A DNA stretch of 64,000 nt from Alphaproteobacteria bacterium (GTDB lineage: Bacteria > Pseudomonadota > Alphaproteobacteria > JAAEOK01). Positions 10,384 through 44,962 of the stretch are shown in pieces. The notes under the pieces were generated by a model. That model did not search any database and was not told the origin of the DNA. It saw nothing but the letters and a program-made list of their open reading frames with translations. Location: positions 29,320-93,319 of the forward strand of contig JAAEOK010000075.1 of the NCBI GenBank assembly GCA_024244705.1, in the 5' to 3' direction. A program made the position numbers and the translations under genes. Position 1 is the stretch's first letter. Every line of letters begins with the position of its first letter.

Positions 10384-10554
10384 GGTTTACGCCCAATCGG
10401 AATGATCAAATCATGGCCGACAGGTCCTAATCGATCCCCGCCCCGAGCGAAAGGGTTTTCGGCGCGTCGTGGATTTCATCGGGGCGCATGGTGACCAAAG
10501 CGTGATTTCTTGGCCCTTTCGCGGAATGCGGAGAGCGCCTATATATAGGGCGTC

Positions 10555-10862
10555 GGGCAACCGACTATGGCGATAAACGATGTTCGCAATAAGCAATGCG
10601 GACCCGGGGGCGGTACCCGGCGCCTCCACCATCTACCGGTTTTCGTCGCGGCCTCGGCGCGGCGTCACGTTATGGGGGCGAAATAGGATCGACGCGTGTG
10701 TAAAGGTATATCTTTCGCTCGGCATGGTACCACCGTTATCGGGCCAAAACCAAAGATGCCAATGACAACGATTTGGCTCTCGCTGCTTAATAGCTAAGCA
10801 AGCGCGGTTCGGGGGGCACCGGGCAACAGAAGCCCCCCACTGTTTGGTGAATGCGAACGGGG
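10555..10862 (+). ncRNA. ssrA: Two-piece (circularly permuted) tmRNA gene ssrA, encoding tag ANDNDLALAA; ends about 3 nt before the sspB ATG
   Basis: - Acceptor piece: a 5-7-5 T-arm (CCGGG-GGCGGTA-CCCGG), a CGCCTCC 3' acceptor strand and discriminator A-CCA (10621-10631), i.e. the gene-level sequence ends GCCTCCACCA.
- Coding piece: after a 42-nt spacer, starts at 10674 with GGGGGCGAAATAGGATCGACG (tmRNA 5' consensus GGGGnnGAnnnnGGAUUCGACG), whose GGGGGCG pairs with CGCCTCC.
- Tag ORF: GCC AAT GAC AAC GAT TTG GCT CTC GCT GCT TAA TAG (10758-10793) gives ANDNDLALAA, a double stop inside the canonical stop hairpin, and an LAA ClpX degron.
- P2: the 3' tail GGTGAATGCGAACGGGG is complementary to GTTCGCA in the acceptor-piece 5' region.
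- Boundaries are approximate. Confidence 0.75.
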
Positions 10863-10864
10863 TC

Positions 10865-11350
10865 ATGACGCAGGCTGACTACAACTATAACCTTCTCGTT
10901 CACGACGCACTGACCGGCGTCGTGCGCGGCGTTTTGACCGACGCGGCGAAGAACGGGTTGCCCGGACAGCACCATTTCTACATTACCTTCTCGACCGGCC
11001 ACCCCGGCATCGAAATGCCCGACTATCTTCGCGTTCAATACCCGGAAGAGATGCCGCTGATATTGCAGCACCAGTTCTGGGGTTTGGACGTATTCGACGA
11101 TTCGTTCGAGGTGACACTCAGCTTCAAGGGCGTTCACGAACGCCTCCATGTCCCGTTCGAGGCGATCACGACCTTCGCCGACCCCTCCGTCAATTTCGTT
11201 CTTCGCCTCGGCCTCGTCGATTCCGACGAGATCGGTGACGGCGAAGAAACCGCGCCCGAAGGGGCGACGCTGCACCAGGACGACCTGCCCGTGATCGATG
11301 CGGACGACGGCGACAATGTCGTTTCCATCGATTCCTTCCGCAAAAGCTGA
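10865..11350 (+). CDS. sspB: ClpXP adaptor SspB (stringent starvation protein B), SspB-alpha type
   Basis: Strong similarity to alphaproteobacterial SspB: ...HHFYITFSTGHPGIEMP...YPEEMPLILQHQFWGL...FEVTLSF...LHVPFEAITTFADPS... and a C-terminal ClpX-binding tail VVSIDSFRKS. Start taken at the ATG MTQADYNYN (10865); alternative TTG/GTG codons lie at 10844/10847. Confidence 0.8.
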   Translation: MTQADYNYNLLVHDALTGVVRGVLTDAAKNGLPGQHHFYITFSTGHPGIEMPDYLRVQYPEEMPLILQHQFWGLDVFDDSFEVTLSFKGVHERLHVPFEAITTFADPSVNFVLRLGLVDSDEIGDGEETAPEGATLHQDDLPVIDADDGDNVVSIDSFRKS

Positions 11351-28137: not shown

Positions 28138-28328
28138 TTCGATCTTGTCTCCCGCTTCAGGAAGGTCGTGAGGGATTGCACGATCGGGCAAATCAACGCC
28201 GGGACCGGGCAAACGCCCAACCGGGGTCATTCTATAAGAATTTCGCTGTCCCGTCTGGACATTGCGCCGGTCGGTCGTTCCGGCTACCATTTCAATCGGA
28301 GTCGATGGCAAATTCCGGGGACCGAACC

Positions 28329-28694
28329 ATGTCAGACGATACCACTCTGCCGACGGGGGACGACGCGCAGAAAGCGCGCAACCTGCTGCTCATTACCTAC
28401 GTTCTTTATGGTCTGAGCCTGATCAATGGCCTGACCGCGGTGGCCGGCGTCATCATCGCCCACATCAAGGTCAATGAGGTTACCGACGAGTTTCTCCAAA
28501 GCCACTACCGGTGGCTCATCCGCACCTTCTGGCTCGGCCTCATCGCCGGCATCATCGCCGGCGTGCTGACCGTTATCTTCATCGGCTTCCTGCTGCTGTT
28601 GGTTGTCTTCCTGTGGTACATCTATCGGCTGGTGAAGGGTTTTCTCCGCTTCAACGACGGCAAGCCGATCGAAGACCCGGGCGCCTGGCTCTAA
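28329..28694 (+). CDS. Small integral membrane protein (DUF4870-like, 2-3 TM)
   Basis: MSDDTTLPTGDDAQKARNLLLITYVLYGLSLINGLTAVAGVIIAHIK... The start at 28329 has GGGGA 7 nt upstream; an alternative ATG lies at 28305. Confidence 0.45.
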   Translation: MSDDTTLPTGDDAQKARNLLLITYVLYGLSLINGLTAVAGVIIAHIKVNEVTDEFLQSHYRWLIRTFWLGLIAGIIAGVLTVIFIGFLLLLVVFLWYIYRLVKGFLRFNDGKPIEDPGAWL

Positions 28695-28759
28695 CATAGG
28701 CGACCCGGCGCCGGAATCCGGTTAAGGCGTATCCCGGATATCCTGATCCGGCCAATTCA

Positions 28760-28856
28760 GTCGTCCCGGATGCGTTCAGCACGTCGTGCTGCTTCGCCGG
28801 TCCGGGATCCCGGGTCTGCAGCACACCGCTGCGCGCTGCGCTGCGCCCGGGATGAC
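28760..28856. repeat. Copy A of a roughly 100-bp palindromic MITE/REP-like intergenic repeat with terminal inverted repeats GTC(G/A)TCCCGG ... CCCGGGATGAC
   Basis: gtcgtcccggatgcgttcagcacgtcgtgctgcttcgccggtccgggatcccgggtctgcagcacaccgctgcgcgctgcgctgcgcccgggatgac is about 80% identical to the element at 42301-42402. The two halves are mutually complementary (long imperfect hairpin) with a central CCGGGATCCCGG palindrome. It lies in the convergent gap between the DUF4870 gene and the aryl-CoA ligase gene. Confidence 0.6.
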
Positions 28857-28907: not shown

Positions 28908-30545
28908 TCAGGATTCCAACGGCCGCGCCTTTAGCGCCTGGCGATCGATCTTGCCGGTTCCGGTCTTGGGCAACTCGTTGGTGTAGTCGATGATCCGCGG
29001 ATATTTGTACGGCAGCAGCGCGGCCTTGACATAGGCTTGCAGTTCCTTCGTCGTCGCCGCCGACTCCGCGCGGCCGGGTTCGAGGACGACGAAGGCCCGA
29101 ATCGTCATCCGCCGGTCCGCCAGCTCGACGCCGAAGACGGCGCATTCGCGCACGGCGGGATGTTCGGCCAGGCACAGCTCGATTTCGAGCGGATAGACCC
29201 ATTGACCGCTGACCTTGATGAGGTCGTCGGCGCGGCCGCGGAAAAAGTAGAACCCGTCCTCATCCTCGACGAAACGATCGCCGGTCCAGATCCAGTCGTC
29301 GCGCATGGTGTCGGCCGTTTTCTCCGACTGACCCCAATAGCACGGGGCGCTCGAATGACCACGGACGGAAAGGATCCCCTCCTCGCCGGCGGCGACCGGC
29401 GCACCGGCGCGGTCGGTCAGTCGGATCTCGTAACCGGGAACGCGCTTTCCCGCCGCGCCCAGCTTCTTTTGCTCGACCGTATTCGACAGGTACATGTGCA
29501 GCAATTCGGTCGACCCCAGCCCCTCGACGATCTCGAGGCCGAACAGTTCCTTCCAGCCATTGAAGATTTCCGCCGACAACACCTCGGCGGCCGAGACGCA
29601 AAGCCGCAGCGACGAAAGGTCCGCGGTTGCGCTTCGCGGATCCTTCAGCAGGGCCGTGAAGAGCGTCGGCAGGCCGTAGAACACGGTCGGGCGAAATCGC
29701 TCGATCGCGGTGAAAACGGCTTGCGGGTCGGGGCGCCCGGCGAGTAACACCGAGCCGCCGCCGGTGGCGAACGGAAAGGTGACCGAGTTTCCGAACCCGT
29801 AGGCGAAAAAGATCTTGGGCACCGAGAAGCTGATGTCGTCTTGGCCGAGAGCGATGACATGGCGGGCATAGGATTGGGCGGTGTAGAGCATGTCGTGCTG
29901 GAGATGGACGACTCCCTTCGGCCGGCCGGTGCTGCCGGAGCTGTACATCCAGAACGCCATGTCGTCGCGGTCGGTCCGCGCGGCATCGAGCCTGGTCTCC
30001 TGCCCGGCGAGCCAGGTCTCGGCGTCTTTGATCTCGAAGCGACCCGCGAGCGAAGCCAGCCCATTCACGATGACGGTTTCGAGGGCCGTGCCGTCGACCG
30101 TCTCCCCATCGAAACTGTCGGCATAGGCGGCGTCGACGATGGCGGCACGGGCCCGCGAATCCTGAAGATAGAAGCGGACCAACTCGACCGGCGACAGCGT
30201 ATTGATGAGGACCGGTACCAGGCCCGCCCGAATGGCGCCGAACAGGGCCGCCGGATAGACCGGCGTATCGTCGAGGAAGAGAAGCACGCGGTCGCCGCGC
30301 GCGAGGCCGAGTTCGCGGAACCCGTTGCCGAACCGCGCGGCCTGCTCGCAAAGCTGCCGATAGGTCCAATCACCGGTAGCGCCGTAGATCGCGATCTTGT
30401 CGCCGCGGCCGGTCTCAAGATTGCGGAAGAGGATCTCGCTCGCGTTGTAGCGATCAGGCACCGAGAACCCGATCTCGGCCGCACCGGGCGCATCGTCGGG
30501 CACGCGATCGACGATGGTGTCGTCGTCCGACGCGTCCGCGCTCAC
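28908..30545 (-). CDS. Aryl-CoA ligase of the benzoate-CoA ligase family (AMP-forming)
   Basis: YSSGSTGRPKGV AMP-binding motif, plus benzoate/4-hydroxybenzoate/2-aminobenzoate-CoA ligase-like N-terminal (FSVPDRYNASEILF) and C-terminal (GTGKIDRQALKA) regions. A GTG start at 30545 with AAGGAG 8 nt upstream is proposed. The ORF-track start at 30707 would overlap the upstream gene by 160 nt. Confidence 0.75.
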   Translation of the reverse strand: MSADASDDDTIVDRVPDDAPGAAEIGFSVPDRYNASEILFRNLETGRGDKIAIYGATGDWTYRQLCEQAARFGNGFRELGLARGDRVLLFLDDTPVYPAALFGAIRAGLVPVLINTLSPVELVRFYLQDSRARAAIVDAAYADSFDGETVDGTALETVIVNGLASLAGRFEIKDAETWLAGQETRLDAARTDRDDMAFWMYSSGSTGRPKGVVHLQHDMLYTAQSYARHVIALGQDDISFSVPKIFFAYGFGNSVTFPFATGGGSVLLAGRPDPQAVFTAIERFRPTVFYGLPTLFTALLKDPRSATADLSSLRLCVSAAEVLSAEIFNGWKELFGLEIVEGLGSTELLHMYLSNTVEQKKLGAAGKRVPGYEIRLTDRAGAPVAAGEEGILSVRGHSSAPCYWGQSEKTADTMRDDWIWTGDRFVEDEDGFYFFRGRADDLIKVSGQWVYPLEIELCLAEHPAVRECAVFGVELADRRMTIRAFVVLEPGRAESAATTKELQAYVKAALLPYKYPRIIDYTNELPKTGTGKIDRQALKARPLES

Positions 30546-31687
30546 GGGCTGATCTCCTTCGCCGACCGACGGTTCAGATATTCGCCCACGAAGCCTGGTG
30601 AATTCGCCCGCAGGCGCTCGGTGTCGACGCGGCCGCTGCGCTGGATATAGCGCCAGGCGAGGTTCCAGGCATCGAGTTCCATATGCCGACCGAAACTCTC
30701 GTACCACGCGCCGCTCGCATTGGCCGCGGCGACCAGCTTTTCGACGATCGGCCGCCGTTCTTTCTCATAACTTTCGAGCGCCCTGGGCACGTCATCGCCA
30801 TGCATCTCGAGCGCCTCCGCCAGGGCTATGGCATCCTCGAGGGCGAGCCGCGTCCCGGAGCCGATCGAGAAATGCGCGGTGTGCAGCGCGTCACCGACGA
30901 GCACGGCATTGCCGGCAGACCAGCGGCGGTTGGACACTCGGGGAAAATTCCGCCAAACCGACTTGTTGGAAACCAGGGAATGGCCATCGAGATCTTCGGC
31001 GAAAGTCTCCTCGCAATAGGATTTCGTCTCGGCTTCGGTCATTTCCGCAAAGCCCGCGCGCGCCCAGGTCTCGGCGTCGGTCTCGACGATGAATGTGCTC
31101 ATCCCCGGCGCGTAACGATAATGGTGCGCGTTGAAAACGCCGTCGGCGGTTCGGTGGAATGTCTGGGTAAGCGTCTCGAACGGCTTGGTCGTGCCGTACC
31201 ACACGAACTTGTTCGAGAAATAGGTAACCGACGCGCCGAAGGCATCCTGGTAGGTGCCGCGGACCAGCGAATTGACGCCGTCGGCGCCGATCACGAGATC
31301 GGCGTCGGCCAATTCATCGAGACTGTCAATTCGACGGCCGAAGTCCGGTCGGAGGTCGACCGAGGCGACCCGCGATTGGAGGAGGCGTAGCAGCTCCAAG
31401 CGGCCGATCGCCGAGAAGCCGATGCCGTCGATTGCGATGATCTCACCGTCATGGACAATGCGAAGGTCGTGCCAGGTTTCGAGGCTGGGCCGGATGAGGT
31501 CGTAGGTTTCGCCATCGTCGGCGCGCAGGAACTCGAGGGCGCGGTCGGAGAAAACGACACCGAAGCCGAAGGTCGCATCGGGCGGGTTCTGCTCGACCAG
31601 CCAGATTTCTGCATCGCCGCGACGCCGCTTGAAGAGATAACTGAAATAGAGACCCGCCGGCCCGCCGCCGATGACCGCCACCCGCAT
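30542..31687 (-). CDS. FAD-dependent aromatic-ring monooxygenase (UbiH/salicylate-hydroxylase-like flavoprotein)
   Basis: Rossmann dinucleotide motif VAVIGGGPAGL, a DG/GD FAD fingerprint (LVGDALHTAHFSIGSGTRLALEDA) and a C-terminal domain. Start taken at the second ATG (MRVAVIGGG), which has GAGGAG 6 nt upstream. Its stop overlaps the ligase GTG start (GTGA). Confidence 0.75.
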   Translation of the reverse strand: MRVAVIGGGPAGLYFSYLFKRRRGDAEIWLVEQNPPDATFGFGVVFSDRALEFLRADDGETYDLIRPSLETWHDLRIVHDGEIIAIDGIGFSAIGRLELLRLLQSRVASVDLRPDFGRRIDSLDELADADLVIGADGVNSLVRGTYQDAFGASVTYFSNKFVWYGTTKPFETLTQTFHRTADGVFNAHHYRYAPGMSTFIVETDAETWARAGFAEMTEAETKSYCEETFAEDLDGHSLVSNKSVWRNFPRVSNRRWSAGNAVLVGDALHTAHFSIGSGTRLALEDAIALAEALEMHGDDVPRALESYEKERRPIVEKLVAAANASGAWYESFGRHMELDAWNLAWRYIQRSGRVDTERLRANSPGFVGEYLNRRSAKEISP

Positions 31688-37945: not shown

Positions 37946-38683
37946 ATGAGCGTCTGGGGCAAGATTCTAGGCGGCGCGGCCGGCTTCGCGATGGGCGGGC
38001 CGTTGGGCGCGCTGGTCGGCGTGATCGCGGGACACGCGGTCGACCGATACCGAACGCAACAGAGCGATGACGTCGACCCCGACGCGGCGACCAAGCGCAT
38101 CGCCTTCACCATTGCGGTCATCGTCTTGGGCGCCAAGATGGCGAAGGCCGACGGCGTCGTCACCAAGGACGAAATCAACGCCTTCCGCGAAGTCTTCCAA
38201 GTTCCGGAGAACGAGATCAAGAACGTCTCCCGCGTCTTCAACCAGGCGCGGCAGGACGCACGCGGGTTCGAGCCCTACGCCGAGCAAGTCGCGCGCATGT
38301 TCCGCAATCATCCGCGGGTGCTCGAGGAACTGCTCAACGCGCTGTTCCACATCGCCCGCGCCGACGGCGTTTATCACGCCAAGGAAAAGGAATTCCTCCA
38401 TCGCGTTTCGGAAATCTTCGGCTTCGACGCGGCGACCTTCAGCCGTATCGAGGCCGAACAGATGGGGCCGCAGAAGGCCGATCCTTACGTCATCCTCGGG
38501 ATGACCCGGGAGGCCGGCGATGCGGAACTGAAATCGGCCTACCGCAAACTGGTGCGCGAGAACCACCCGGATACGTTGGTCGCCCAAGGCATGCCGCAGG
38601 AGTTCATCGATCTCGCCAACGATAAGCTGGCGACGATCAACGGTGCCTGGGACCGGGTCAGCAAGGAAAGGGGAATAAGCTGA
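37946..38683 (+). CDS. djlA: DjlA-like co-chaperone (N-terminal TM, TerB-like domain, C-terminal J domain)
   Basis: TM helix at the N-terminus and a C-terminal J-domain with HPD (DPYVILGMTREAGDAELKSAYRKLVRENHPDTL). Confidence 0.7.
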   Translation: MSVWGKILGGAAGFAMGGPLGALVGVIAGHAVDRYRTQQSDDVDPDAATKRIAFTIAVIVLGAKMAKADGVVTKDEINAFREVFQVPENEIKNVSRVFNQARQDARGFEPYAEQVARMFRNHPRVLEELLNALFHIARADGVYHAKEKEFLHRVSEIFGFDAATFSRIEAEQMGPQKADPYVILGMTREAGDAELKSAYRKLVRENHPDTLVAQGMPQEFIDLANDKLATINGAWDRVSKERGIS

Positions 38684-39563: not shown

Positions 39564-41378
39564 ATGTCGGCACCGCCGCTCACGACCATCGCCGACATCC
39601 ACCTCAGGCTCGGCGATAATGTGCTTTTTGAAGGCGTCGATCTCCGCATCGGCGCCGGCGAAAGGGCGTGCTTGGTCGGCCGCAATGGCTCCGGCAAGAC
39701 GACATTGCTGCGAATGCTGGCGGGAGAAATCGAACCGGATAGCGGCGACACGTTCTTGCAACCGGGCACCCGGCTTGCCTACCTGCCCCAGGAGCCGGTC
39801 CTGGCACCGGATCAGACGGTGCTCGAGTATGTGTCCGCCGGCGGCGCCGCGAGCCACGAAGTTGACGCCGCGCTCGATCAGGTCGGTCTCGATGGCGCGC
39901 GCCCGCTACATTCGCTCTCCGGCGGCGAAGGTCGGCGTGCCGGTCTGGCGCGGGTCTTGTCCGGGCGGCCGGATATCCTGTTGCTCGACGAGCCGACCAA
40001 CCATCTCGACCTCGCGACAATCGAATGGCTCGAGCGGACTCTCCGCGACTATCCCGGCTCGGTGCTGGTCGTCAGCCACGACCGGACCTTTCTCGCCAAT
40101 GTGAGCAATCGGACCCTGTGGCTCGACCGCCGCCGCCTGCGGCGCCTCGACAAGGGGTTTGCAGCCTTCGATTCGTGGCAGGAAGATGTCTACGCCGCCG
40201 AGGCCCGAGCGGTCGAGAAACTCGACAGCAAGTTGGCCGCCGAAGCGCGTTGGCTGCATCGCGGCGTGACGGCGCGGCGGCGGCGCAATCAGGGTCGTCT
40301 GCGCCGCCTGCAGGATCTCCGCGCGGTCCGCGCAACCCTGATCGGTGAGAAAGCGCGCGCCAAGATCGCCGCCGAGGACGGCGAGTTGAAAAGCCGTGTC
40401 GTCATCGATGCCAAGGACCTGTCCAAGAGCTTTCCCGGCGCCGACCAGCCCCTATCGATCGTCAACGGTTTTTCGACCCGCATCCTGCGCGGCGACCGCA
40501 TCGGTATCCTCGGCCCCAACGGCGCCGGAAAGACGACATTGCTGCGGCTCTTGGTCGGAGATCTCGAGCCCGACGGCGGACGGGTGCGCTTGACAAAGAG
40601 CCTGACCGTGGCCTATTTCGACCAGCATCGTGCGATTCTCGACCGCGAGCAGACCCTGTGGCAGACCCTGTGCCCCGGCGGCGGCGACACGGTCTGGGTG
40701 CATGGCCGGCCGCGCCACGTGGTGGCCTACCTGAAGGATTTCCTATTCGATCCGAAGCAAGCCAAGAGTCCGGTCAGCAGTTTGTCCGGCGGCGAGCGCA
40801 ACCGCCTGCTGCTGGCTAAGATCCTGGCCCGGCCGAGCGAGCTGTTGGTGCTCGACGAACCGACCAACGACCTCGATATGGACACCCTCGAGCGGCTCGA
40901 GGACATGCTGAGCGACTATCCGGGAACGTTGCTGCTGGTCAGCCACGACCGAAATTTCCTCGATCGCATCGTCACCGGTACGATCGCCATGGAAGGGGAC
41001 GGCCGGGCCACCGAGTACGCCGGCGGCTACAGCGACTATCTAACCCAGCGCAAAGAAAACAGGCGCGGGGCGGTCGCGTTCAAGGCGCCCAAGAGCGAGG
41101 CGGCGCCACGGACCAGAGAGCGGCCGCGCCGGCAAACGAAGCTGAGCTACAAGGACCGGCGTCAGCTCGAAATCCTGCCCGGCCTGATCGAGGCGATCAG
41201 CGCCGAGATCGCCACGCTCGAGGACAAATTGTCCGATGGCGCCTTTTACACCACGGACCGCGAGGGCTTCGACGGCGCCACTAGGCGTCTCGAAGAAGCG
41301 ATCCAGGAGCGAACAAAGATGGAGGATCGCTGGCTCGAACTCGAGACACTGAGCGAGTCTCTGGAACCGACCGGCTAG
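39564..41378 (+). CDS. ABC-F family ATPase (two ABC domains, no TM; Uup/EttA-like)
   Basis: Tandem Walker A (GRNGSGKTT, GPNGAGKTT), two LSGGE signatures and an inter-domain linker. Confidence 0.85.
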   Translation: MSAPPLTTIADIHLRLGDNVLFEGVDLRIGAGERACLVGRNGSGKTTLLRMLAGEIEPDSGDTFLQPGTRLAYLPQEPVLAPDQTVLEYVSAGGAASHEVDAALDQVGLDGARPLHSLSGGEGRRAGLARVLSGRPDILLLDEPTNHLDLATIEWLERTLRDYPGSVLVVSHDRTFLANVSNRTLWLDRRRLRRLDKGFAAFDSWQEDVYAAEARAVEKLDSKLAAEARWLHRGVTARRRRNQGRLRRLQDLRAVRATLIGEKARAKIAAEDGELKSRVVIDAKDLSKSFPGADQPLSIVNGFSTRILRGDRIGILGPNGAGKTTLLRLLVGDLEPDGGRVRLTKSLTVAYFDQHRAILDREQTLWQTLCPGGGDTVWVHGRPRHVVAYLKDFLFDPKQAKSPVSSLSGGERNRLLLAKILARPSELLVLDEPTNDLDMDTLERLEDMLSDYPGTLLLVSHDRNFLDRIVTGTIAMEGDGRATEYAGGYSDYLTQRKENRRGAVAFKAPKSEAAPRTRERPRRQTKLSYKDRRQLEILPGLIEAISAEIATLEDKLSDGAFYTTDREGFDGATRRLEEAIQERTKMEDRWLELETLSESLEPTG

Positions 41379-41382
41379 CTCC

Positions 41383-42261
41383 ATGCGCCCCGTTCACATC
41401 GTGCTCGCGGTCGCCGTGATGGCGATTTGGGGATTGAATTTCGTCATCGCGAAGATCGGGTTGATGCATCTCGATCCATTGATGCTGACCGGTTCCCGTT
41501 TCGCTCTGGTCGCCGCGATGCTGCTGCCGTTCGTCGGCCGGCCCCGCGGCCAGTGGGGATCGATCATCGTGCTGTCGCTGGTCATGGGCAGTCTCCATTT
41601 CGGCTTCATGTTCTATGGCCTGCGCGGCATCGATGCTTCGGTCGCCTCCATCGCCATCCAAATGCAGGTCCCCTTCGCCGCTCTGCTCGCCGCCTTCTTC
41701 TTCAAGGATTATCTCGGCTGGCGACGTTTGTTGGGCATGGCAGCCGCCATCCTCGGCGTCGTCGTTCTGGCCGGAGAGCCGCGGTTCGACGGCAACCTTC
41801 TGCCGCTTGGCCTGGTCATCGCCGCATCGCTGATGTGGGCGTTCGGCAATATCGTGATCAAGCGCATGGGCCCGATCGACGGCTTCCAGCTCAACGCCTG
41901 GCTGTCGCTGTTTACCGCGCCCCAACTTCTGCTCGCCTCGTGGGCCTTCGAGCCCGGCGCGGCCATAGCGCTGGTCGATGCCCCATGGCAGGCCTATGCG
42001 GCCATCCTCTACATGGCGGTGATGGTCACCATCGTCGGCTATGGCGCGTGGTATTTCCTGATCCCGCGCTACGAGGTCAACCAGACCATGCCGTTCACCC
42101 TGTTGGTGCCGCTGTTCGGCGTGCTGTCCGGTGTCACCATGCTCGACGAAGCCCTGACCTGGCGGGTCCTGGTCGGCGGTACCGCGATATTGGCCGGTGT
42201 CGCGGTCATCATCATCCGCCGCCCGCGCATGATCGCGCCGGAAGCGCAGCCCGACCGCTAG
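41383..42261 (+). CDS. EamA/DMT-superfamily transporter
   Basis: 10-TM protein with two EamA repeats. Confidence 0.8.
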   Translation: MRPVHIVLAVAVMAIWGLNFVIAKIGLMHLDPLMLTGSRFALVAAMLLPFVGRPRGQWGSIIVLSLVMGSLHFGFMFYGLRGIDASVASIAIQMQVPFAALLAAFFFKDYLGWRRLLGMAAAILGVVVLAGEPRFDGNLLPLGLVIAASLMWAFGNIVIKRMGPIDGFQLNAWLSLFTAPQLLLASWAFEPGAAIALVDAPWQAYAAILYMAVMVTIVGYGAWYFLIPRYEVNQTMPFTLLVPLFGVLSGVTMLDEALTWRVLVGGTAILAGVAVIIIRRPRMIAPEAQPDR

Positions 42262-42300
42262 GTCCAATCAGCGTTTGATTGATTCGACCTTCGCCCCTTC

Positions 42301-42402
42301 GTCGTCCCGGATGCGATGCGGCACGAAGTGCTGCTTTGCTAATCCGGGATCGATCCCGGTTCTGCGGTGCACCGCTTCGCGCTGCGCCGCGCCCGGGATG
42401 AC
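42301..42402. repeat. Copy B of the roughly 100-bp palindromic MITE/REP-like repeat (see 28760-28856)
   Basis: gtcgtcccggatgcgatgcggcacgaagtgctgctttgctaatccgggatcgatcccggttctgcggtgcaccgcttcgcgctgcgccgcgcccgggatgac. Same termini GTCGTCCCGG/CCCGGGATGAC and the same internal CCGGGATC(GA)TCCCGG palindrome. It lies in the convergent gap between the EamA gene and the GT2-GtrA gene. Confidence 0.6.
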
Positions 42403-42482
42403 GGAAATGAGACCGCCACGTCGCTCTCTCCCCATTTAGAATCGGAGCGATGCAATCAAAAACTGAAATTCTCTAGCCCTTC

Positions 42483-43571
42483 CTAGCGCTTGCGCCAGGT
42501 GAAGGTGGCGTTCATGCCGTAGTTCCACACCGCGCCGACGACGGCACCGCTGAACCCGGCGAGGAACCAGATCACACCCCGATCGAAGAGAAACTGAGCG
42601 ACGGTCACGTTGATCACGGCGCCGATGCTGCACGCGGCGTAGAAGGTTGCCAGGCCGCGCAGCGCGAGCCAGCCGCCGAGCCGTCGTTCGCGGAACGTGA
42701 TGATGTTGTTGAGGTGAAAGTTGACGGTCATCGCAACGATGGTGGCGATCGCCTGCGACCACATGAACGGAAACTCGCCGATCCGGAACAGCAAGCCGAG
42801 CAAGGTCAGATGCACGGCGAGGCCGCCCAACCCGACCATTACGTAAAGCATGAACCCGACCGGGATCCAGCCGCGAAACAGCTTGTCGAGGACCAGCATG
42901 AGGAATTCGAGCGAGACCAGAACGTCGAGCTTGCTCTTGCCCGAATGGCGCGCGCGGAAGTGGAACGGCAGTTCCCGCACCGGCACCGGGCGGCGCACCG
43001 TGGCGAGAATGTCGAGCAGGATCTTGTAGCCGCGCGCGGTCAATCCGTGGGCCGCCTCATCGAACAGTTCGCGCCGCAACATGAAGAAGCCGCTCATCGG
43101 GTCGGTGAGCGGCATGCGCGTCACGATCCGGCTGATACGGCGCGCCAGCAGGCTCATCCGCTCGCGTGTCGATGACGACAACCCTTCGGCGCTGCCGCCT
43201 TCCAGGAAGCGGCTGCCAACAACGATCTCGACATCCTCGCTCTTCAGCACCTCCAACATCGTCGGCAACAAGGTCTCGTCATGCTGGAGATCGGCGTCGA
43301 TGACGGCAACGAAGGGCGTTTCGGTTGCCAGGATGCCTTCGATGCAGGCCGAGGACAATCCGGATCGGCCGATGCGGTGGATCACCCGGACCCGGTCATT
43401 CTCTCGCGCCAGCCGTCGCAGTTCATCGCCCGTTCCGTCGATCGAATCGTCGTCGACATAGACGATTTCCCAGGCGTCGCTATCGAATGCGCGGCCGATG
43501 CGTTCGAACAGCGGCCGGACGTTGCCGACCTCGTTGAGGGTCGGCACGATGATGGCGAGTTCCACGGTCAC
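42483..43571 (-). CDS. Family-2 glycosyltransferase fused to a C-terminal GtrA-like 4-TM domain (polyprenyl-phosphate sugar transferase type)
   Basis: GT2 DXD context (IVYVDDDSIDGT, VIDADLQHD), then a GtrA-like membrane domain. Confidence 0.8.
   Translation of the reverse strand: MTVELAIIVPTLNEVGNVRPLFERIGRAFDSDAWEIVYVDDDSIDGTGDELRRLARENDRVRVIHRIGRSGLSSACIEGILATETPFVAVIDADLQHDETLLPTMLEVLKSEDVEIVVGSRFLEGGSAEGLSSSTRERMSLLARRISRIVTRMPLTDPMSGFFMLRRELFDEAAHGLTARGYKILLDILATVRRPVPVRELPFHFRARHSGKSKLDVLVSLEFLMLVLDKLFRGWIPVGFMLYVMVGLGGLAVHLTLLGLLFRIGEFPFMWSQAIATIVAMTVNFHLNNIITFRERRLGGWLALRGLATFYAACSIGAVINVTVAQFLFDRGVIWFLAGFSGAVVGAVWNYGMNATFTWRKR

Positions 43572-44562: not shown

Positions 44563-44962
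<400 letters not shown>

Follow-up and report, generated by a model that had tools for sequence, protein, structure and literature searches.

Two hairpin dimers between convergent genes

The window, by which is meant the whole 64-kb stretch of DNA analysed here, carries two copies (A and B) of a palindromic repeat, each lying between two convergently transcribed genes. Both the coordinates and the convergent-gap placement had been given in the original prediction, and both are confirmed, the latter by the neighbouring ORFs. Each copy consists of a left and a right hairpin unit; the copies, their units and the adjacent genes are:

28305 to 28694, plus strand: small membrane protein of 129 aa, to the left of copy A; its stop lies 65 nt before the element
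28760 to 28856: copy A, 97 nt
28760 to 28809, plus strand: left unit of copy A, 50 nt; GTC tag, stem GTCCCGGA, structured loop, closing TCCGGGAT, tail C
28806 to 28856, minus strand: right unit of copy A, 51 nt; minus-strand reading GTCATCCCGGGCGC...CCCGGGATC
28908 to 30707, minus strand: AMP-binding enzyme of the acyl/aryl-CoA ligase family (PF00501, 1.6e-75; PF13193, 2.6e-17), to the right of copy A; stop codon 51 nt past the element
41383 to 42261, plus strand: EamA/DMT transporter (PF00892), to the left of copy B; its stop lies 39 nt before the element
42301 to 42402: copy B, 102 nt
42301 to 42351, plus strand: left unit of copy B, 51 nt; a preceding C makes its tag CGTC
42352 to 42402, minus strand: right unit of copy B, 51 nt; minus-strand tag CGTC
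42483 to 43571, minus strand: GT2 glycosyltransferase with a GtrA membrane domain (PF00535, 3.8e-29; PF04138, 1.5e-17), to the right of copy B; stop codon 80 nt past the element

The ORF to the left of copy A had been named a DUF4870 gene. A small membrane-protein ORF is indeed present there, but the label itself is weak: the Pfam matches, to Yip1 (E=1.7e-4) and DUF4870 (E=0.0023), both fall below the cut-offs. The listed start of the ligase ORF on the other side is probably over-extended. The EamA protein beside copy B is matched exactly by an NCBI protein that bears the name of the metagenome-assembled genome (MAG) “Alphaproteobacteria bacterium,” and a 1.7-kb contig of another assembly, reached through the exact-protein look-up, is identical to the window. 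The nearest named EamA homologues (Kiloniellaceae, Rhodovibrionaceae) are only ~55% identical to it.

Over their whole length the two copies are 81% identical (83/102 in a global alignment), the left halves agreeing at 82% and the right halves at 88%. If the flanking C and G are included, copy B spans 42300 to 42403 and the palindrome then reads CGTC...GACG. The termini described earlier, GTCGTCCCGG...CCGGGATGAC, are present and are conserved across the family treated below, and the central palindrome is there as well, as CCGGGATCCCGG in copy A and CCGGGATCGATCCCGG in copy B. In a blastn comparison of the two copies, each with 600 nt on either side, only 597–697 of the one aligned with 598–702 of the other, which is the element plus 3–4 nt; since the alignment ends at the element edges, the repeat is a discrete unit and not a segmental duplication. 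The bases immediately before and after the element are TTCA and CATT at copy A, and CTTC and GGAA at copy B. Five occurrences of the motif GTCRTCCCGG are found in the window against 1.07 expected, a count that none of 100 shuffles reached, and four of the five are ends of copies A and B. One conceivable reading is that these are chance palindromes, or a local duplication confined to the region, as the visibility of just two copies in the window might suggest: the unrelated flanks, a motif count above all shuffles, and hundreds of related copies in unrelated contexts have already refuted it, and its probability is negligible.

Both elements are very probably head-to-head dimers of a long-loop, CGTC- or YGTC-tagged, REP-like unit. 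Each is a pair, tags outward, of one ~51-nt unit that runs, from the outer end, through a (Y)GTC tag, the stem (A/G)TCCCGG, an insert of ~31 nt that forms a second, covarying helix of its own, the closing CCGGGAT and a tail C; all four units in the window read GTC-stem...stem-C. The right units have an 8-bp stem (ATCCCGGG/CCCGGGAT), and the left units have GTCCCGGA/TCCGGGAT with a G.T at the first position. The units of copy A overlap by a common GATC, and those of copy B abut without a spacer. The bases before the tags are atypical in copy A, with A on the left (AGTC) and G on the right (GGTC) instead of Y.

A covariance model (R1) built from 69 distinct 51-nt units, run over the 64 kb at full sensitivity with filters off, recovers exactly these four units, at 41–76 bits: 41.3 bits (E=2.4e-8) and 75.6 bits (E=4.9e-17) for the left and right units of copy A, and 61.0 bits (E=2.5e-13) and 74.8 bits (E=7.7e-17) for those of copy B. 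Elsewhere in the window the best score is a self-reverse match with E=0.014. The right unit of copy B differs by a single nucleotide from the right unit of an Inquilinus locus (L006). The hairpin potential claimed for the element also stands up to folding: on both strands the folds are far better than those of dinucleotide shuffles, with z between -3.9 and -8.5 as RNA and between -3.1 and -5.0 as single-stranded DNA (ssDNA). Folded alone with DNA parameters, each unit forms one hairpin with tag and tail unpaired (copy A left, a single hairpin with the tag unpaired, z=-3.9; copy A right, -22.4 kcal/mol, z=-5.0; copy B left, z=-4.9), and in the whole-element ssDNA fold two hairpins are closed by a short terminal GTC/GAC pairing.

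A dispersed family and its genomic setting

A strict right-arm pattern, searched in species-representative genomes and informative on spread across orders rather than on copy number per genome, has members in seven species genomes: Ferrovibrio, Inquilinus, three Xanthobacteraceae, one Hyphomicrobiales, and one uncultured alphaproteobacterium. A whole-element pattern has at least 120 matching stretches in metagenomes, and a half-unit pattern has members on viral or prophage contigs as well. The proposal of a dispersed, REP-like palindromic repeat, a large family in multiple copies, is thereby borne out: the flanks of the two copies are unrelated and many relatives lie in other DNA, so that a local duplication is out.

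From genomes, metagenomes and viral contigs, 134 distinct dimers were extracted. All 134 have three modules, a tagged hairpin, a spacer of 0–45 nt (often with a palindrome of its own) and an inverted tagged hairpin, the head-to-head layout being a requirement of the search pattern. The inner hairpins vary widely among copies, left and right units occur in many combinations, and short-loop members exist (for example CGTCATCCCGGCGAACGCCGGGATCCA, from locus L047). Dimer edges are sharp and coincide with the tags. A pyrimidine (Y) stands before GTC in 125/134 dimers and a purine (R) follows GAC in 123 of 133, implying that the true tag is YGTC. Pairing holds in 94.3% of cells across the 69 distinct 51-nt units, and compensatory change is seen in 13 of 19 pairs (125 cells); none of 500 shuffles reaches any of five pairing measures, and slid controls are 30–46% paired. 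Mismatches of the G-T kind number 35 and those of the A-C kind 21 (p=0.08), which does not single out a strand of action.

The original prediction had also called the repeat a MITE. A classical MITE, derived by deletion from a DDE-transposase insertion sequence (IS) and moved through its terminal inverted repeats, would likewise be ~100 bp long, intergenic and present in several dispersed copies with inverted termini. It would not account for the ends of these elements: a target-site duplication of at least 3 nt was found at 0/134 dimers, and 2-nt matches at dimer ends are below chance (4 vs. ~10). Nor was a source of transposition seen; a Pfam scan of 30 ORFs in 0–44 kb of the window found no transposase, integrase or Y1 transposase, and an IS with the element termini GTCATCCCGG was absent from the window and was not seen in the collected loci. 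Each half is, moreover, a hairpin unit in its own right, recombining with different partners and spacers, and what had been taken for terminal inverted repeats are the bases of the two hairpins. Without target-site duplication, and with no cognate IS in the window or seen in the loci, the MITE label fails, and this origin is highly improbable.

Where do the dimers lie? Among 76 with callable neighbours, 32 are in convergent, 37 in tandem and 7 in divergent gaps, compared with 40, 134 and 55, respectively, among the other gaps of the same loci (n=229). Convergent gaps are thus enriched (42% vs. 17%; odds ratio 3.4; Fisher p=3.5e-5) and divergent gaps depleted (p=0.005), and in tandem gaps 25 of the 37 dimers are nearer the 3' end of the upstream gene. 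The preference for gene 3' ends that had been suggested from the two window copies is therefore real across the family.

This placement is an argument for an alternative in which the repeat is a host-selected RNA element, acting as a bidirectional terminator or as a 3'-end stabiliser, with its repetition secondary. The very stable RNA hairpins fit such a role, as does a precedent in Bradyrhizobium, where Br-REP is transcribed in overlapping 3'-UTRs (PMC5082802). The location bias is, however, equally well explained by purifying selection against insertions in promoters, and the best-conserved features, the unpaired tag, the tail C and the strict orientation of the units, are irrelevant to termination. 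Mismatches show no clear bias of G-T over A-C, and Rfam has no family at the elements, either at the gathering threshold over the whole window or at a permissive E-value at both sites. The bidirectional terminator that had been proposed is not there in canonical form: the GC-rich hairpin is present, but no T/U tract follows it on either strand of either copy. As a primary explanation a selected RNA function seems unlikely, although it can be a true side effect of the repeat.

Site B offers a comparison with relatives. One of them, with an EamA 75% identical to that of the window, keeps the order ABC-F, EamA, GT2-GtrA, amidase, MraZ; its EamA/GT2 stop-to-stop gap is ~22–30 nt and holds no element, compared with 221 nt in the window. 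The element is also absent from this site in two other relatives. Presence or absence at site B thus varies among relatives, in genomes too diverged for intergenic alignment or for an exact junction.

Relation to known repeat systems

The elements had not been recognised as belonging to a named family. They do fit one, the CGTC-tagged REP superfamily (PMC3733652), and they resemble Br-REP1/2 (PMC5082802) and the design of the “Ssn-related motifs” (SRMs; PMC11893778). Among the members of the class to which they belong are Br-REP1/2 of Bradyrhizobium, the SRMs of Neisseria (NTS/dRS3) and the alphaproteobacterial CGTC REPs, and the window copies are a long-loop variant of this known class.

The CGTC-tagged REPs are mostly alphaproteobacterial and carry CGTC, TGTC or CCTC as an unpaired tag at one end (Di Nocera et al., 2013, PMC3733652). 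Their stems of 8–9 bp start with AT and are followed by a short tail, they occur mainly as head-to-head dimers with spacers of 20–100 bp, and Bradyrhizobium CGTC-1 includes members with odd loops; they “lack a dedicated transposase,” and the study found no tyrosine transposase gene flanked by them (PMC3733652). The elements studied here share the unpaired tag (CGTC on both strands in copy B, Y before GTC in 125/134 of the family), a stem within the 8–9 bp class (8 bp) that starts with AT in the right units, the short tail after the stem, and, in both window copies, the head-to-head dimer with tags outside. Spacers that often contain a palindrome, a mainly alphaproteobacterial distribution and the lack of an associated tyrosine transposase are further points in common. 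They differ in the structured window loop of ~31 nt instead of 4–5 nt, in window units that abut or overlap with no spacer, in the left units of the window, which begin with GT rather than AT, and in copy A, which lacks Y before GTC. Short-loop members of the family, such as CGTCATCCCGGCGAACGCCGGGATCCA, fit the description of CGTC REPs exactly, the window units being long-loop variants.

A second comparison is with Br-REP1 and Br-REP2 of Bradyrhizobium japonicum, three-palindrome elements that are transcribed where the 3'-UTRs of convergent genes overlap (Hahn et al., 2016, PMC5082802). Their central junction, CCGGAATCTCGAGATTCCGG, is the counterpart of CCGGGATCGATCCCGG in the window, and the Br-REP arm, ...GATTCCGGGTTCG[hairpin]CGCCCCGGAATGA, shares its skeleton with the window's GATCCCGGGTCTG[hairpin]GCGCCCGGGATGAC. 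The stems are not the same (ATTCCGGGG vs. ATCCCGGG, or ATTCCGG vs. ATCCCGG), the inner hairpins differ, and the window elements, compared by eye with the published consensus, do not have the Br-REP CCGGAATCTCGAGATTCCGG or CGAGATTCCGGGTTCGGCTCTTCGAGCCGCCCCGGAATGA. The host differs too, an unclassified alphaproteobacterial MAG rather than Bradyrhizobium.

The third comparison leads outside the Alphaproteobacteria. In Neisseria the 94-aa, single-domain GIY-YIG protein SsnA binds and cuts its target, the NTS, only as ssDNA (Chenal et al., 2025, PMC11893778). The NTS, CGTCATTCCCGCGMAVGCGGGAATCYRG, contains dRS3; the C after its palindrome is critical for binding by SsnA, and cutting, which takes place a few nucleotides upstream, depends critically on the 3 nt that precede the palindrome (PMC11893778). 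Bacterial ssn homologues are flanked by SRMs (PMC11893778), whose directional design, in which a hairpin is directly preceded by GTC and directly followed by C, is found in all four window units. The resemblance to the Ssn system extends to hundreds of copies per genome and, at the level of the family, to units on both sides of genes for ~95-aa single-domain GIY-YIG proteins. The published SRM string, HGTCWYN(0-2)YYVSBRHN(0-5)WNVSBRGN(0-2)RNCYNB, nevertheless matches none of the four window units, which have a loop of ~31 nt where the string has room for at most 5 plus a few; the single match in the window, at 38488–38517, is at chance level. Among the short units of the family (up to 30 nt), 16/31 match. 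Since the string misses long-loop units, SRM counts for Alphaproteobacteria are probably underestimates. The window differs from the Ssn system also in having no ssn gene and in its stem, ATCCCGG rather than ATTCCCGC.

The original prediction had suggested looking for a REP-associated tyrosine transposase (RAYT), and a REPIN-type doublet mobilised by a RAYT of the IS200/IS605 Y1 family is a further alternative. The architecture is similar, with an inverted pair of hairpins carrying a conserved 5' tetranucleotide, no target-site duplication and multiple extragenic copies; in the REPIN-RAYT system (Bertels and Rainey, 2011), too, two inverted REP hairpins make up the replicating unit, and a single-copy gene is flanked by repeats on which its product is thought to act. 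Here, however, the tag is YGTC, not GTAG, and the study of CGTC repeats found no tyrosine transposase gene flanked by them (PMC3733652). Searched by phmmer with E. coli RayT, 10,733 six-frame ORFs (the window and 164 loci, the related loci making up 1.2 Mb) gave no match at E≤10, and the Pfam scan of window ORFs from 0 to 44 kb has no Y1_Tnp. The genes actually embedded between units encode small GIY-YIG nucleases, not HUH/Y1 transposases. Given the YGTC tag and the lack of a RAYT, membership in the REPIN/RAYT group fails, although the architecture is analogous, with mobility putative in the present case; mobilisation by a RAYT, which the family-level results have already refuted in part, is very unlikely.

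Two further searches had little to add: a PLSDB blastn search with copy B, a query too short for BLAST to inform, gave one partial match, in Terrarubrum, and a literature search by terminal 10-mers returned primer coincidences only. For annotation purposes, both elements are REP-like repeats of the CGTC-tagged, Ssn-related-motif type, and not MITEs, terminators or sRNA genes.

Small GIY-YIG genes and a putative partner nuclease

The 1.2 Mb of DNA selected for the presence of the elements contains just three small GIY-YIG ORFs (PF01541, E from 1e-11 to 1e-16), and all three sit directly between or beside units. Coming from the protein side, a search found four homologues, 58–78% identical, every one of which is flanked by units on both sides. 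On IMG/VR contigs, GTC-tagged hairpins lie within 300 nt of 36 of 47 further homologues (on both sides in 21 cases), usually with the tag outward, and the density of such hairpins is 3.26 per kb near the gene compared with 0.57 per kb further off; many of these units are identical to the NTS core, CGTCATTCCCGCGAAGGCGGGAATCCA. The association has thus been reproduced, from the repeat side and from the protein side, on independent metagenomic and viral-contig data.

The proteins are 95–96 aa long and have Tyr6, Tyr17 and Glu64 at the positions that were mutated in the 94-aa N. meningitidis SsnA; the Pfam GIY-YIG match, the length and Y6/Y17/E64 agree with putative membership in cd10448. Among solved structures only distant UPF0213 GIY-YIG proteins match (E ~0.05). 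Caulobacter BapE had been considered as a member of this GIY-YIG family, and was dropped when a literature search gave no support. Within the 64-kb window itself, hmmsearch and tblastn found neither a GIY-YIG ORF nor a remnant of one. Long-loop units of the window's type do occur near such genes in other loci: at L110 they lie 2.3 kb from the ssn-like gene, and at L210 they come immediately after the gene. At locus L168 the gene lies inside a dimer, and the ends of the spacer there, ACCGG...CCGGT, equal those of the gene-less dimer by the L110 gene.

From these associations it seems reasonably probable that an Ssn-type GIY-YIG ssDNA nuclease is encoded elsewhere in the genome and that the window elements are its non-coding partners. 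In single-stranded form each unit may serve as a binding and cleavage site for this trans-encoded endonuclease, and as every dimer presents one correctly oriented unit per strand, either strand could be recognised. The gene-less dimers would be non-autonomous relatives of the arrangement unit - ssn gene - unit, spread or maintained through an ssDNA, hairpin-based process that leaves no duplication, and selection would keep them at harmless sites after genes. Once transcribed, the hairpins would probably act on the 3' ends of the two convergent mRNAs, stabilising or attenuating them; any such effect would be secondary. As an account of the whole, tagged stem-loop dimers that are cut by a trans-encoded Ssn, are non-autonomous and influence gene 3' ends as a side effect offer the best explanation available, and on balance a probable one.

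Of greater interest is the question of whether this nuclease is itself responsible for spreading the gene-less dimers. In this stronger and decidedly more tentative version, the dimers would be non-autonomous mobile elements, their autonomous form would be a tagged hairpin, an ssn gene and an inverted tagged hairpin, and the GIY-YIG ssDNA nuclease, cutting just outside the tags on each strand, would be the mobiliser, an analogue of REPIN/RAYT with a different catalytic fold. The equal spacer ends at L168 and L110, the element edges at the tags, the lack of target-site duplication and the variable presence of the element among syntenic relatives point in this direction. On the other side, the role demonstrated for the Ssn nuclease in Neisseria is that of limiting transformation, which counts against Ssn-driven spread of the repeats, and an IS-like architecture was raised by the authors of the Ssn paper as a hypothesis only (PMC11893778). 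If the nuclease does copy or excise dimers, this would explain the spread of CGTC-type REPs, a question dating from 2013 (PMC3733652).

A final observation concerns the nuclease gene. In one alphaproteobacterial clade its start codon is closely preceded by a GTTC-N7-GTTC motif, and for this reason it may be under SOS control there.

Gene-bearing and gene-less dimers

At one locus outside the window (L168:1911-2340), a head-to-head dimer encloses a gene resembling those for Ssn, a small single-domain GIY-YIG ssDNA endonuclease, in the layout unit-ACCGG-[gene]-CCGGT-unit. The same ACCGG...CCGGT spacer ends are found in a gene-less dimer of another contig (L110:1383-1488), and gene-less dimers look as if they were gene-deleted derivatives of gene-bearing ones.

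Other arrangements are mixed or clustered. At L108:400-1100, a different unit of CGTC type, CGTCGTCCTGAAYTCGATTCAGGACCCA, forms an inverted pair that closely brackets a GIY-YIG gene, and an ATCCCGG-type dimer lies farther upstream; two unit types are therefore present around one gene. Tandem arrays of short units with the end ...GCCCGGGATGAC are joined to one side of dimers, a BIME-like clustered organization, at the following loci:

L067:11500-12200, tandem array of short units
L039, L041, L044, L138 and L151, further arrays of this kind

A direct repeat upstream of ssn-like genes

Among the Ssn-like GIY-YIG genes, the three that are most closely related have GTTC-N7-GTTC just 5′ of them, 5-20 nt ahead of their start codons (approximate coordinates):

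L110:1528-1542, GTTCATGTTATGTTC
L166:1981-1995, GTTCGTGATACGTTC
L168:1980-1994, GTTCGTGATATGTTC

These are 3 of the 54 GIY-YIG loci, with an expectation of 0.004 per locus. The motif corresponds to the alphaproteobacterial LexA box in its direct-repeat form, and its placement hints that ssn-like genes in this clade may be under SOS control. LexA is not mentioned in the paper on Ssn (PMC11893778).

Counterparts of copy B

Only one base separates the right unit of copy B (window:42352-42402) from a unit of Inquilinus sp. YAF38 (L006:4085-4135), which it resembles more closely than it does its counterpart, the copy A right unit (88%). Across orders, consensus-like units come back nearly unchanged, while their partner units vary. 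A 1.7-kb contig from a very fragmented public assembly (L008; GCA_024449835.1, JAANTA010857215.1) is 100% identical to window 40865-42543, copy B included, and therefore represents the same organism in another data set.

Other palindromes and structural RNAs in the window

The window's only match to the published search string for the Ssn-related motif (SRM), CGTCATCCTCGGGATGACCCGGGAGGCCGG at 38488-38517 (+), falls within a TerB/DnaJ-like ORF (37946-38683); because about 0.8 matches are expected by chance in the window, it is probably fortuitous. Several small palindromes occupy the interval between the stop codon of the gene to the left of copy A and copy A itself (28698-28755): CCGGCGCCGG, CCGGAATCCGG and TATCCCGGATA. 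They are possibly remnants of decayed repeats or, alternatively, 3′ structure of the left gene itself.

Two structural RNA genes were also found:

10513-10841, permuted alphaproteobacterial tmRNA (Rfam, 266 bits)
44566-44962, class A RNase P RNA (287 bits)

The first is directly followed by the gene for SspB, the ClpXP adaptor for ssrA-tagged proteins (10844-11350). The second has the peptidoglycan amidase region on one side and, on the other, mraZ/rsmH, where the cell-division (dcw) cluster starts; this order (amidase region, RNase P RNA, mraZ-rsmH) is shared by the relatives represented by L159 and L164.
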